A DNA stretch of 63,942 nt, the filler included, from Chrysochromulina tobinii (lineage: Eukaryota), in NCBI GenBank assembly GCA_001275005.1. It is 5 parts of 5 records of this genome, joined end to end, with 100 filler letters (N's around TTAATTAATTAA, not from the genome) between each part and the next. Parts side by side here need not be neighbours in the genome. Positions count along the whole stretch, not along the records: positions 1 to 31,805 come from JWZX01001255.1; 4 more parts are not named here. One strand, written 5' to 3'. Positions within the stretch are counted from its first letter, which is position 1. Every line of letters begins with the position of its first letter. A program made the position numbers and the translations under genes. The notes under the pieces were generated by a model. That model saw nothing but the letters and a program-made list of their open reading frames with translations, searched no databases and had not been told where the DNA came from. Positions 23,996-41,201 of the stretch are shown here, one piece after another.

Positions 23996-24084
23996 CTATC
24001 TCAAACTCACGTGCCTGGGACACCCGCGTTCCGGGTGTCCGGTTCCCCCCTAGGCCGGTTCTTGAAGGGTGTCCCCTCTCCGTC

Positions 24085-26491
24085 ATGGACGCCGCAAGGG
24101 AGGCGTGCGCGCGCTATGGCGGCGCGGCGCACGCCGTGGGAGTCTTAGACCCTGGCACGACGTCCTACGGCACCATGCCAGTGGCGGCGTACGAAGCTTC
24201 GGCACCGCCTGCCTACGAAGTGTCGGGGGCGCCCGCCTACGACGCCGCGGCCGCTGTGTACACGTCAAATGCGGCCATGTATGATGCCGAGGCGGCAGCT
24301 GCGTACGGAACCGCGTCCGCGTCCGCCGGCGTCCACGGCGCGGACGACTCACTCTTTGACGATACGGAGCTGAGGCAAGGCCGCAAGCCCAAGCTTCCGG
24401 GCGAGCCGGCCAAGCCTCGCACGGCGGCCATGTTCTACGCGGCGCACCGCAAGGAGGAGATGCGGCGAGAGGGTCACGGGTTCCAGATCTCCCTATTCAA
24501 CGCGCAGTGCCGCGAGGAGTGGCGCGCCATGTCCGATACGGCGAAGCAACCCTTTGAGTATCTCGAGCGCAACGACCGCGCGCGGTTCGAGGAGGAGGTG
24601 CAGCGCTGGCAGAGCATGCCACAGCCGCAGGCCGTGCCGGGCATCGACCCGTCGCGCTTCACCAAGTGCGGCCGTCTCAAGAAAGACCCGCAACGCCCGA
24701 AGCATCCGCACTCGGCGTACTTTTACTACATGGAGGCGCATCGGCAGACCGTGATGACCGAGTATGCGGGTGCGAGCGTGCCCGATATCACACGCATGCT
24801 CGCGACGCAGTGGAAGGCCCTCGGCGCCGAGCAGCGGGTGCCGTTCGAGCAGCTCGCCGTGCGCGACAAGGAGCGTTTCAACGCCGAGATGGAGCAGTGC
24901 GCTGATTGCCATCTGATTGCCATCTGATTGCCATCTGATTGCCATCTGATGAGCTCATCTCAGTTTGCCATCCTCGAATGGGCGCTGATGAGCGCGAATG
25001 ACCACGGATGACTGCTGACGGATGACCTCTGAGGACCTCCGACGGCCTCTGACGACCTCTGATCATCGCTTGAGTGCCTCCCTCATCAGGTACCAGCCGA
25101 GCTCCCTGATTGCCTCTGATTGCCTCTGATTGGGCCTGAGTGCCTCCCTCATCAGGTACCAGCCGAGCTCCCTGATTGCCTCTGATTGCCTCTGATTGGG
25201 CCTGAGTGCCCCCCTCATCAGGTACCAGCCGAGTGCTGAGTTCAGCGCCATGAAGGAGCAATACCATCATGCCAAGGAGCAGCGCAAGCAGGAGCGACAT
25301 GCGCATGCAAGCCCCGGCTTCGGCGCGGACGGCAGCTTTTCGGGCAGCAGTGCGGTCCACGCCACCTACTACGCGCACGACGCGGCGGCCGCGGAGGCCG
25401 CAGCTTCCCTCTCCCTAGTGCCGCTCGGCAAGACGCGAGATTCGTCACACCTGTATGCACAGCATGTGGACGCTGACGAACCCGAGGGCGATGCGGTGCT
25501 CCTCGTAACCACCATCGACGAGAATGCGGCCGCGGCCAGGGCGGCCGCCGCCGCCGCCGCCGCCGAAGGGCATCCGTACGGGCATGCGAACGGCTACGAG
25601 TACGAGCCCGATGAGCGAGAGCGGCGAAAGCGCGGCCGGCCGAAAGGCAGTAAGAACAAGCCCAAGGACCCGAACGCGCCCCTCAAGCCGAAGGCGCTCA
25701 TCGGGCCCGACGGCCAGCCGCTGCCCAAGCGCAAGCCGGGGCGGCCAAAGGGCTCCAAGTCTCGGCCAAAGGGGGATGGGGCCGACGGGGGCGCCGTGGT
25801 GAGCGCCCTTGGGCCCGAGTGCGCGGCGGCGGCGGCGCTCACCACGGCGCTCACGCAGCCCTTCCCAGGCGCGTACGCGAGCGCCGTGGCGAGCGGGTAC
25901 GCGAGCGGGTACGCGAGCGGGTACGGTGGCAGCTACTCGGCCACGTATGCAAGCGGCGGGTACGGGGGCTTCGCCCAGACCGGAGGTGCGACCTCCGCAG
26001 CCGCCGACGCCGATGGCAACGGAGACGCCGCGCACTTGTTGAGCTCGTTTGGAGGCGCCAGCAACGGCGGGTACGGGTATGTGGCCGCTCCGCCGACGAC
26101 GGAAGCCCCCGCCTACGCTCCGCCTTCGTCCTCCTCGGTCGCCTCCTCGGTCGCCCGCATCATGAGGACCGTCGGCGTCGGCGGCGGCGGCGGCGGCGAC
26201 GGCGCCGGCGCCGGTGGAAGTGGCGGCGGCGGCGGTGGTAGTAGCGGCGGACGAGGTGGCTACAGCAGTACGGTTGCCGCTGGCGGCGGCGGCGGCAGCG
26301 GCGGCTTTGTAACCTCAAGTGGCGGCATGCTGATGGTGTGTGACGATGTAGGGCGCGCCACAGCGGCCCCGTCGGCCGGCCTGCCCGCGCGGGCGCCGCC
26401 GCCCACCACGGCGCCTCGGCATGATCCTCATGATGATGAAGCAGCTGCTCACTCACTCTCCTCGCTGTACGGGTTCCTCCAAGGCGACTGA
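24085..26491 (+). CDS. Protein with two HMG boxes and AT-hook-like motifs; exons 24085-24896, 25222-26491
   Basis: PAKPRTAAMFY...EWRAMS..KQPFE and KDPQRPKHPHSAYFYY...WKAL...DKERFNAEMEQ|YQP; KRGRPK and KPGRPK motifs in exon 2. Confidence 0.88.
24897..25221 (+). other. 325-nt GT-AG intron containing (GCCATCTGATT)4 and a 66-bp tandem triplication of the acceptor/exon junction
   Basis: CTCATCAG|GTACCAGCCGAG at 25089/25090, 25155/25156 and 25221/25222; only the last gives an open frame. Confidence 0.85.
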
Positions 26492-28271: not shown

Positions 28272-28525
28272 GAGCGTTGGGACGAAGCAGGTCCACCCTG
28301 GTGACGTGGACAGGTGACGTGGCAAGGTCCACCCCGGTGAAGCGCGCTGGGGGCCGCGGGTGGTGGGGCATGTTAGAGCTGGGAGGGGGAGCGCTGGGAC
28401 GAAGCAGGTCCACCCCGGTGAAGCGCGCTGGGGGCCGCGGGTGGTGGGGCATGTTAGAGCGGGGAGGGGGAGCGTTGGGACGAAGCAGGTCCACCCCGGT
28501 GAAGCGCGCTGGGGGGCGCGGGTGG
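28272..28525. repeat. G-rich 81-bp minisatellite, ~2.5 copies plus a partial unit
   Basis: AGGTCCACCCCGGTGAAGCGCGCTGGGGG at 28325, 28406 and 28487 (81-bp period). Confidence 0.9.
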
Positions 28526-38778: not shown

Positions 38779-40923
38779 ATGCCCGCTGCCATCAAGCTGG
38801 GCGCCCTCCACAACGCGCCGTCGAGCGTGGACCCGGCATTTGTGATGGCGCTGTGCACACCACAGCCCTCTTGCCTGCTCAATTCGGCAAGCGAGCGCGA
38901 ACAGATGGCACTGAAGACGCTCGCGCGAGCGCATGCTGCCAACAAGGAAGGTGCGACTGTGAAGGCTGCGGCGCTGTTCTACGAGGCGGCGCAGCTCGAG
39001 CCTTACCGTACGTCTACACTCTTGTCGCATTTGAGCATGCGGTTCAAGCTTGGCGAGGCTGAGCTCGTTGTGGCGAGCTACTTATGGCTGCTTGAGCATC
39101 GAGAGCTCAGTGAGCGAGAGTGGGAGCACGTGCGGTGCAAGCTTCGTGAGGTTAGCCAGCGCGTCGTCGAGACGGAGGAGACGCGCCGCGCGGCCGTGAC
39201 CATCCAGCGCATCGCGCGCGGCCGTTCGGCGTCAACTGCGGTACTCCGGCGGCGGCATCAGAATGAGGCCGCACGGGTCATCAACCGGTGCTGGTTGCGA
39301 CGGGCGCGTCAGCGCCACGACCTTGGCGTCGCGCCGCTCGTGACGCATGTGGTGCTGCTCTGCCTGCCGCCTGCCTTGGTCGACTACAACGGCGGCGCGC
39401 CGCTCGACGAGGCGGACGGCGAGCCGGCGCGTTGTACAGCGCGTCAGCCTGCGAGCGTGCTCGCGTCGTATGCGCTACCGAACCGCCGCCATCTGGTCAG
39501 TCCGGAGGCCCTCGCCCCGTTTGCGAGCATGGCGCTGCCGACGAGCCAGCCGCCGCACGTTGGTGGCGTCCTCAACTTCGTCGTCACCACGCGCAGCGGT
39601 TTGGCGCTGCAGGGGTGTGCCCTCTCCTTCGCGGAGATGCAGCGGCACCCATCGAGCGCCGTTGCGGGCGCTCTGCTACCACACTCGCCCTCGCCCTCGA
39701 TGTCGCCATCGGCATCGACGTCGCCGCGGGAGGTGCTCGTGCTGCTGGGGCAGCGCTACTTGCCCCGCGCGCTCGCAGCGTGCGCGCACGCGCTCTTGCC
39801 GCTTGCCTTGCCCCTGGCGAACGCTGCCGCTGCGGACGCATCCCGTGACGAGTCGTCAGCGAGGTGCGCGAGGTTGCGGGCCGCATGCCGTGCGTTGCTC
39901 TTACAGCCGGCGCCACGCGCCACCGGCTGGCCGTGCGTCGTGGAGTGCGCAGGCGTCCGCGTCACGTGCATCGTGCCCACGTTCCCGGCAGCCTCCACCC
40001 ATGCGAGCGTCGTCGTCGGAGCGAGTGCGCTGTCGGCGGTGCCACCGCCGATGCCGCCGCCAGTCGAGCCTCTCTGCGAGGCGATCGCGCCGATGGGCGT
40101 GGAAGCGCTCACGACGGTGCTGACCGCGCTGCTGCTTGAGCAGAAGGTGCTCCTGATCTCAGCGCGAGCGAGCCGTCTCACCGCCGCTGCTTACACACTG
40201 AGCTCTCTACTCTTCCCCTTTCGCTGGTGTAACACCTTTGCTCCCCTTCTGCCACCCTCGCACGAGGCGGTCACGGCCATGCCCTTCCCATATATCTTGG
40301 GGATCGTGCGCGGCGCGCAGCACGCCCGACACGGCGCCCGACCGACGCCGGCCGCGCACGCCGGCGCCGAAACGGCGCCGTGTTGGGCGCCCGAGACGGC
40401 GCCGTCGTCGCCGAGCGAGGCGGTGCTCGTCGTCGGGCGCGAGGTGGTGCGCGTCTTCCTGGACGAGGGGCGTGTCGAAGGCAAAGAACTTCTGCCTCTA
40501 CCTGAGCGCGAGGGCGTCGCCTTCCGCGCGCGCTTGCGTGCGGCTCTCGACGGCGGCGGTCGAGCATTCGGGTCCAGCGCGGCGAGCGATGCTGCTGTGC
40601 AGGCCGCATGCCTCGCCCTCACCAGCTCGTTGCTGTGCGACTGCCCGGCGCGTCTCGCTGTGTCGCGTGGCGCCCGTGACGACGCGTACGGCTCGAGCGC
40701 GGCGGAGGGACTCGAGACGCAGGACGAAGAGGTACGCGAGATCACCGACGCTTTCATACGCAAGCAGCCGGTGCTCTCGCGTGCCTTCGCGCGCAAGCTG
40801 TCCGAGACGGCCTCGTTCAAGCACTTCGTCGAGGTGCTTGTCCAACCCTCGTGCGCATGGCCGCGCTGGATGCACCTGTTCGCAGCGCACGCTCGCCACG
40901 AGGCGAAGAGGCGGCCGACCTGA
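38779..40923 (+). CDS. DENN-domain protein (Rab GEF-like) with IQ motifs
   Basis: IQ AAVTIQRIARG; cDENN TALLLEQKVLLIS...LLFPFRWCNTFAPLLP...PFPYILGI; dDENN F..K...ETASFKHFVE. Confidence 0.85.
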   Translation: MPAAIKLGALHNAPSSVDPAFVMALCTPQPSCLLNSASEREQMALKTLARAHAANKEGATVKAAALFYEAAQLEPYRTSTLLSHLSMRFKLGEAELVVASYLWLLEHRELSEREWEHVRCKLREVSQRVVETEETRRAAVTIQRIARGRSASTAVLRRRHQNEAARVINRCWLRRARQRHDLGVAPLVTHVVLLCLPPALVDYNGGAPLDEADGEPARCTARQPASVLASYALPNRRHLVSPEALAPFASMALPTSQPPHVGGVLNFVVTTRSGLALQGCALSFAEMQRHPSSAVAGALLPHSPSPSMSPSASTSPREVLVLLGQRYLPRALAACAHALLPLALPLANAAAADASRDESSARCARLRAACRALLLQPAPRATGWPCVVECAGVRVTCIVPTFPAASTHASVVVGASALSAVPPPMPPPVEPLCEAIAPMGVEALTTVLTALLLEQKVLLISARASRLTAAAYTLSSLLFPFRWCNTFAPLLPPSHEAVTAMPFPYILGIVRGAQHARHGARPTPAAHAGAETAPCWAPETAPSSPSEAVLVVGREVVRVFLDEGRVEGKELLPLPEREGVAFRARLRAALDGGGRAFGSSAASDAAVQAACLALTSSLLCDCPARLAVSRGARDDAYGSSAAEGLETQDEEVREITDAFIRKQPVLSRAFARKLSETASFKHFVEVLVQPSCAWPRWMHLFAAHARHEAKRRPT

Positions 40924-41201
40924 TGAAGATTGCGGCTGACCTGATGAAGATCGCGAACTTACAACTCGGCGTGTTTCATTCAAATATCGTAGGAGCAGTG
41001 GGTTGAAGGTATCCACACAACAAGAATATGCTTCCAGGTGGAGTACTGTTCAGACACAGAGTACGTGCAGGCTTTTATTTATCCATTGAAGGATTTGATT
41101 TGACTTGACTTGTCATCGAAGGCTTTGGCGGACTTGACTTGTCTTGACTCTCTTGGCGGGCGCTGTGCACAATTTGGGCTCAGCTTGCCGAGCGCGGATT
41201 G

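Follow-up and report, generated by a model that had tools for sequence, protein, structure and literature searches.

Tandem 66-nt acceptor units stacked in an intron of an HMG-box gene of Chrysochromulina tobinii, and similar stacks at sister loci

The window, a stretch of 63,942 nucleotides from Chrysochromulina tobinii (GCA_001275005.1), carries on its plus strand an HMG-box gene whose coding exon 1 (24085..24896) opens at the ATG at 24085 and is covered by an RNA contig of run X13 spanning 24078-24896. This exon encodes an HMG box that matches Pfam PF00505 in two stretches (E 4.9e-23, best at residues 205-271), the second of which ends at the intron. As assembled, the intron is a GT..AG sequence of 325 nt (24897..25221, plus strand), and the RNA joint from 24896 to 25222 that removes it is absent from all three DNA runs. 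Coding exon 2 (25222..26491, plus strand) runs to the stop codon and completes an ORF of 693 aa; the X13 contig is unbroken over 25222-25771. A search for homologues of the HMG-box protein found P0001 as the sole relative, and the first 35 codons of exon 2 align to residues 227-258 of P0001, directly after its HMG box, with 13 of 35 identical (E 0.004, for a single pairwise comparison). The best named relative of the neighbouring oxidoreductase is from Prymnesium sp. (58% identity). GC content in the window is 57-69% per 2 kb; that of Chrysochromulina tobin is given as 63.4% in the accessible part of PMC4580454.

Within the intron, an older body of 193 nt (24897..25089, plus strand), containing the donor, microsatellites of 11 and 10 nt and a first acceptor at 25088-25089, is followed by two 66-nt units. 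The first, which we call T-type (25090..25155, plus strand), consists of a 12-nt copy of the start of exon 2 (25090-25101) and a 54-nt 3' module (25102..25155, plus strand) made of CTGATTGCCT repeats and an acceptor, which is common to introns of unrelated genes. The second, C-type unit (25156..25221, plus strand) differs from it at a single position, with T at 25145 and C at 25211; it likely stands for 5-6 tandem copies, the last of which supplies the acceptor of the mRNA. The original of the 12-nt copies lies at positions 25222-25233 of exon 2. Tandem Repeats Finder reports a period of 66 nt with 2.5 copies, 98% matches and a score of 319, and this period covers 25071-25233, crossing the exon-intron boundary at 25221/22.

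The earlier note had placed AG/GT sites 66 nt apart at 25089/90, 25155/56 and 25221/22, had described the units 25090-25155 and 25156-25221 as GT...AG sequences that each open with the first 12 nt of exon 2, and had predicted that the first or second AG leads to an early stop whereas the third restores the protein. All of this was confirmed. In translation, donor 24897 joined to either of the first two AGs gives 283 aa, with the stop 13 codons past the joint, and joined to the third gives 693 aa. The 12-nt copies were considered as micro-exons and rejected, as there is no GT after them, and no donor within 25090-25221, whichever AG up to 25400 it is joined to, gives a product longer than 500 aa. 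The 'zero-length exons' of the earlier note are an interpretation; inner-site use is seen nowhere in the assembled contigs of the locus.

Six RNA runs contain the stretch, and five of them (X13, X14, X15, X16 and X18) were examined as assembled contigs. The joint from 24896 to 25222 is present in four of the five (X13, X14, X15 and X18), where its shorter side is 255, 47, 30 and 137 letters long and in every case extends past the 12-nt copy; under a 31-letter side rule, three of the five runs qualify. The intermediate joints named in the earlier note, from 24896 to 25090 or 25156, occur in none of the five, in assembled contigs that drop rare forms and may prune a 66-nt side path. X16 has no joint at the intron, and a contig of this run (24921-25109) spans the first AG/GT uncut and without differences. 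The end product, a join at the last acceptor, is settled; the route of removal is not fixed by contigs. All five runs also contain a 96-nt cyclic contig, with one full turn of the C unit and then another unit, which the window lacks. Its depth is 2.7-7.7 times that of the exon contigs, or about 0.5-1.5 per copy, and could reflect retention, excised intron, library DNA or shared words. We did not accept circles or stable lariats as its source, because about 10 of the 66 words lie in the module common to other introns and because intronic reads are common in another haptophyte, where they were found in 89% of 535 introns according to the available text of PMC4028052.

Five locus-specific pieces of the C unit stand at 4.75-6.33 times the depth of single-copy flanks in three DNA runs (flank depths 82/78, 41/37.5 and 43.8/42.3), and a T-specific piece stands at 1.57 times flank depth, where 1.3 is expected for one copy. 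The depth fit is based on unbranched single contigs containing the gene-specific 12 nt, summed depth not being equal to copy number, and excludes one X1 value (376.2, piece length not given). The reads contain a word joining the C unit to a further unit, which the window does not have (8 of 24 words absent). When model arrays were compared by word counts, one T plus five C units gave a sum of squares of 2.4, one T plus six C units 3.2, and the assembled form 99. An array of 6-7 units, and so 7-8 AG/GT sites, is likely, the copy number being an estimate from three DNA runs that may come from one culture. The duplication claimed in the earlier note is thus real and not a single unit, with its copy number understated at two; the 325 nt hold for the intron as assembled, the true length by the depth fit being likely about 590-655 nt; and the proposed removal in 'three steps' has the wrong number if the depth is right. 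The assembly likely collapsed a minisatellite at the array. There are 352 N letters in the window, with one run from about 31806 beside a GCG repeat, which indicates a scaffolded short-read assembly and is consistent with collapsed repeats. The same gene in another sample, L009, was assembled with two units, both T-type, and one fewer 11-nt repeat; its count of two is that of the assembled form. No empty allele of the HMG-box locus was found, L009 having units too. A gap in DNA cover at 24958-25023 was dropped as a finding, as an RNA contig matches the gap exactly.

The unit can be described as the 12-nt exon start plus the 54-nt module or, equally, as 35 foreign nt set within a local repeat of 31 nt: 31 of its 66 nt are a local copy, and the remaining 35 nt are without an upstream source in the gene and match other introns. 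Other single-copy contigs match 25106-25157 (52 nt, one difference, X12) and 25114-25157 (44 nt, one difference, X8). The sister loci L016 and L070 end in the same module as the HMG-box intron, and L070/L078 have an identical build, in which an inner acceptor is followed by 14 nt of exon copy with CCGAG at its end, and then by the same module start. CTGAT is a putative branch-point motif, as the earlier note labels it. Words of the 10- and 11-nt microsatellites (24902-24950 and 25106-25132) reach a summed DNA contig depth hundreds of times that of single copy, and the genome must therefore hold these modules in great numbers. Two copies of the reverse complement of the acceptor octamer CTCATCAG lie in the intron's 5' portion, at 24946 and 24985. 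Folding of the intron gave no unusual stability (z +1.17), and masking of the inner acceptors by RNA structure was rejected, 90 of 100 shuffles folding equally well. When the window was scanned for direct repeats in general, coding repeats dominated the result and nothing was added.

Elsewhere in the window, the 74-nt intron of an ARM-repeat gene (30388-30315, minus strand) begins with 36 nt that copy the start of the next exon with one mismatch. It has a different 3' module, of 38 nt, and an exonic AG before it, so that it is a single unstacked case. The logic of 'exon copy + 3' module' that the earlier note saw in both introns holds for the ARM intron, with its different module, and for many introns of the lineage. 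An intergenic 81-nt tandem repeat at 28325-28525 (2.5 copies, 97% alike) is C-rich on the minus strand and may be collapsed. A 21-nt tandem repeat in a DENN-domain ORF (40911-40955), with two acceptor-like sites on the minus strand, is probably coding and unrelated to the stacks.

Metagenome contigs scanned with the 19-nt acceptor yielded at least 122 loci in 27 of 64 parts, with full flanks for 80, and the same pattern gave no match in viral_contigs. Among the matches listed, the at least 122 loci represent 70 distinct sites, with at least two allele pairs left split and one site, L083, that looks like a chance match. Introns at these loci were read from sequence and reading frame. A stack rule, calling for an inner acceptor, an exon copy and the module, flagged 15 of the 70 sites among the matches listed; dropping L032 (end mis-set) and L062 (AG/CT) leaves 13 of 70, the HMG-box gene included, with units of 39-258 nt, mostly 62-98. 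L050, L120, L023 and L024 look stacked on inspection and were missed by the rule. Bare acceptor repeats of at most 30 nt, mostly 20-22 nt, are present at 12 of the 70 sites among the matches listed. Given that many-copy loci are likelier to match the pattern, we recounted the sites whose last acceptor is the exact pattern, and found 7 of 50 stacked and 4 of 50 bare among the matches listed.

A copy of the exon start (at least 10 of 12 letters) lies at the likely intron start in 26 of 66 sites among the matches listed, against a mean of 1.8 and a maximum of 6 in 200 control swaps. Exact exon copies at other sites measure 10-54 nt; that of the HMG-box intron is 12 nt. Exons beginning with GT or GC make up 59 of 66 among the matches listed. 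Free-standing introns of the family, 68-96 nt long, are found at L001, L064, L016, L007 and L075. A whole intron of 77-78 nt is present as one copy in L019 and as two in L060/L093, three 74-nt units occur in L057, and L050 has an extra 74-nt unit that L038 is without; this extra unit fits plain tandem duplication of neighbouring sequence.

Bare 20-22-nt repeats of a branch-like motif plus acceptor are seen at L018, L122, L047, L059, L012, L046, L032, L102, L004 and L072, with as many as seven in a row, and their copy number differs between assemblies (7 in L018, 4 in L122). An inner AG/GC of L023 reads AA/GC in L048/L094, and inner exon copies of L099 and L116 have GT changed to GG. From such letter changes, older stacked sites appear to decay. 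The alleles L026 and L042 of one gene differ by an extra internal duplication in L026, and L054 and L073, again alleles of one gene, have different module text; these differing interiors suggest fast turnover of intron content.

On the reading that we lean towards, the stack is neutral for splicing, a side effect of duplication that goes on throughout the lineage, and it leaves the transcript mostly in a single step. This duplication process would have placed the 3' module of another intron after the opening 12 nt of exon 2, probably through a template switch in repair or replication at the short shared word CCGAG, with the exon start copied again. With an existing acceptor as the target, the new intron-like unit would abut the old intron, and the 31-nt direct repeat left by the duplication would then have seeded tandem expansion. 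The same event on an exonic AG/GT would give a new intron; on an existing acceptor, or by misalignment of direct repeats, it would give a stack. The module start CTCCCTGATTGC is found at two sites among the matches listed (at least 122 loci), in both after a CCGAG that comes from unrelated exons; because different letters precede the module start at another locus (loose contig ends), the CCGAG microhomology is a matter of these two cases. From the variable copy lengths, the shared 3' end and the short joint words, we infer templated copying in the course of repair or replication, or primed insertion of intron 3' ends, to which a cut-and-paste transposon with fixed duplication seems the less fitting alternative.

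As to the route of splicing, removal in one step is the reading that we favour, with reserve. The exon-adjacent acceptor would win, as the outermost donor does in the human F7 minisatellite, so that the inner acceptors would likely be skipped and the whole array would leave at once. The array is self-similar, and any pairing of donor and acceptor would remove whole units, with the same mRNA once splicing is complete; since the mRNA would be the same whatever the pairing, we propose that the array is nearly neutral and that stacks accumulate for this reason. Some of the sister loci bear directly on this point. Inner acceptors followed by CT (seven in L018, six in L047) or GG (three in L116) are predicted from the frames to lead to early stops with no donor left, the frame of L116 being weakly set (47, 44 and 40 open codons). 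On this prediction, the spliceosome has to be capable of passing over inner acceptors that are intact. However, these dead-end acceptors lack the GT that is usual after true acceptors, and may be weak sites with little bearing on CAG/GT. Emiliania has a GA donor in 1 of 13 verified joints, according to the accessible portion of PMC4028052, which weakens AG/GA cases such as L012 as evidence for skipping, and inner use keeps the frame open in L004, L102, L045 and parts of L032 and L099, so that those loci favour neither route. Since GT or GC opens 59 of the 66 exons among the matches listed, splicing would regenerate donors routinely, and re-splicing likely must be suppressed. In flies the EJC suppresses re-splicing (PMC8184009, in its available part), and human lariats indicate that short introns lean to the conventional route of removal rather than the recursive one (PMC10156609, likewise in part). 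Counting against removal in one step, each unit is sized and built like the free-standing introns of the family, with its donor in a CAG/GT context, and the accessible text of PMC7138796 describes a fungal complex intron in which splicing starts with the smallest internal intron that can be formed.

That last point belongs to a different account, stepwise removal, which we regard as possible and as the less probable of the two. Each 66-nt unit would then be an intron, excised one or several at a time until the AG/GT sites are exhausted, either by recursion that starts at exon 1 or, as every unit donor is in the pre-mRNA, without a set order. Units do match single family introns in size and build, and L060 consists of two copies of the intron that stands alone in L019. 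Fungal stwintrons show a choice of the shortest intron (PMC7138796, in the part available), and recursive lariats have been found across a range of intron sizes (the portion of PMC10156609 at hand). Among the matches listed, inner units of at least 55 nt make up 11 of 16 that start with GT versus 6 of 27 with neither GT nor GC (p 0.004), but this contrast is gone without module-only repeats (11/15 versus 6/12, p 0.26, among the matches listed), and unit length points to selection for spliceability at a significant level solely with those repeats included. The intermediate joint appears in none of the five RNA runs, a point of little force as contigs drop rare forms, and the contig of X16 crosses the first AG/GT uncut. 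Stacks that are unable to ratchet exist, and inner sites decay in alleles (AG/GC to AA/GC in L048/L094 versus L023; GT to GG in L099). Extended to the family, the stepwise account would have about 1 in 7 introns of a large young family consist of stacked, abutting introns of 60-100 nt, with zero-length exons, routinely removed unit by unit, a generalization that we hold to be doubtful. Recursion would then be a neutral outcome of intron birth, the stacks forming when a duplication that creates introns falls on an acceptor already present.

Two further explanations have lower standing. Acceptor choice might be leaky, with all acceptors used once and most products keeping at least one unit; these products, which stop 13 codons on, would be degraded or left non-coding, so that mRNA accumulates from last-acceptor products only. 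The inner acceptors are identical to the last or one base from it, their use gives a stop, the unit is present in all five RNA runs at 2.7-7.7 times exon-contig depth, and early duplication experiments, as told in the available part of PMC1557585, used the proximal copy. Yet the joint of exon 1 to a unit is absent from all five RNA runs, the intronic reads pervasive in a haptophyte (89% of 535 introns; PMC4028052, in part) explain the RNA cover, and 6-7 competing sites would waste most of the output, whereas the array persists in two samples; we consider this explanation unlikely. Hardly credible is an assembly artefact, with a single true acceptor and units that are misjoins between module-sharing introns. 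The module is indeed common to many loci, which tangles the assembly graph, but in three DNA runs the depth of pieces with the gene-specific 12-nt exon copy is 4.75-6.33 times that of the flanks, the cyclic unit contig is in all five RNA runs, and the independent assembly L009 has units with other variants. Between the skipping of near-identical acceptors and recursive removal, both offered in the earlier note, skipping is favoured by sister loci that hold inner acceptors unable to ratchet, and recursive removal has no intermediate joint among those listed.

If it leaves in one step, the array is an oddity in the evolution of introns; should removal be stepwise, recursive splicing would be extended to a new lineage and size class, and if unit-by-unit removal holds for the family, it would be an everyday property of short introns. 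The 6-7 near-identical AG/GT sites in a short intron offer a panel for acceptor choice and a testbed for recursion in short introns, together with dozens of sister loci whose units vary in length and number and in the letters that follow AG. The rebuilding of intron 3' ends by repeated exon-start duplication bears on intron birth. The case is also a warning that introns of this kind will be collapsed or mis-called by short-read assemblies and gene finders. A full-text literature search found no report of stacked acceptor and exon-copy units in haptophyte introns, though the supplements of introner papers may hold the family; the accessible part of PMC12130899 makes no mention of haptophyte, Chrysochromulina, nested or recursive.

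The closest likeness at the level of splice sites is to the 37-bp VNTR in intron 7 of human F7 (PMC1557585, as described in its available part), where the tandem unit also spans the boundary of exon and intron and an identical splice site returns with each copy, and where the exon-adjacent copy is used, as in the joint from 24896 to 25222 here. In F7 it is the donor alone that is reiterated; here it is the acceptor, and as the units also begin with GT, each is a possible whole intron. The layout seen here is moreover found again in many genes of a single lineage. Copy-number variation between alleles is seen at our other loci, and the HMG-box locus has 6-7 units by depth and two as assembled in L009. 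The juxtaposition of acceptor and donor with no exon between, found in recursive splicing and in abutting U2 introns (PMC10156609 and PMC6616335, both in part), is found here as well. The known ratchet cases in those excerpts are mostly long animal introns of unique sequence with lariat or sawtooth proof; the present intron is shorter than 700 nt and made of young tandem copies, with no intermediate joint in five RNA runs. A very long host intron is not strictly required for recursive splicing, according to the same portion of PMC10156609.

Among mechanisms of intron gain, the introner-like elements of Symbiodinium and of Polarella classes 4, 5, 6, 8 and 10 (10.1101/2020.10.14.339549 and 10.1101/2022.06.06.494994, in their accessible parts) resemble our units in that the insert supplies the acceptor and duplicated gene sequence the donor. 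They show similar sequence at unrelated genes, which here is true of the 3' module only, and have fixed duplications of 3-8 nt, often with inverted repeats, where the copies here measure 10-54 nt. The Chrysochromulina introner of Gozashti et al. (10.1101/2022.06.06.494994, available text), with 4-bp duplications and its own 5' site, is the reverse of what we see. As for the presence or absence typical of introners, stacked units vary elsewhere (L038/L050, L019/L060), and the HMG-box locus in L009 has units. In the Rogers model (PMC3265369, in the part at hand), duplication of an AGGT segment gives a spliceable GT..AG unit with the protein unchanged, as here; however, that model and that of Hellsten involve only neighbouring sequence, whereas here an existing acceptor was hit, 35 nt are foreign and the unit was then amplified. 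Fungal stwintrons (PMC7138796, PMC8469720 and PMC6616335, as far as their available text goes) are likewise short and complex and contain two or more U2 units that can be removed consecutively, but they are nested in a splice signal, which forces the order, whereas our units abut at AG/GT and one-step removal gives the same mRNA. We do not class the stack as recursive splicing, as a classical introner or as a stwintron; it is a real feature, larger than first noted and lineage-wide, that joins splice-site minisatellites and duplication-born introns.
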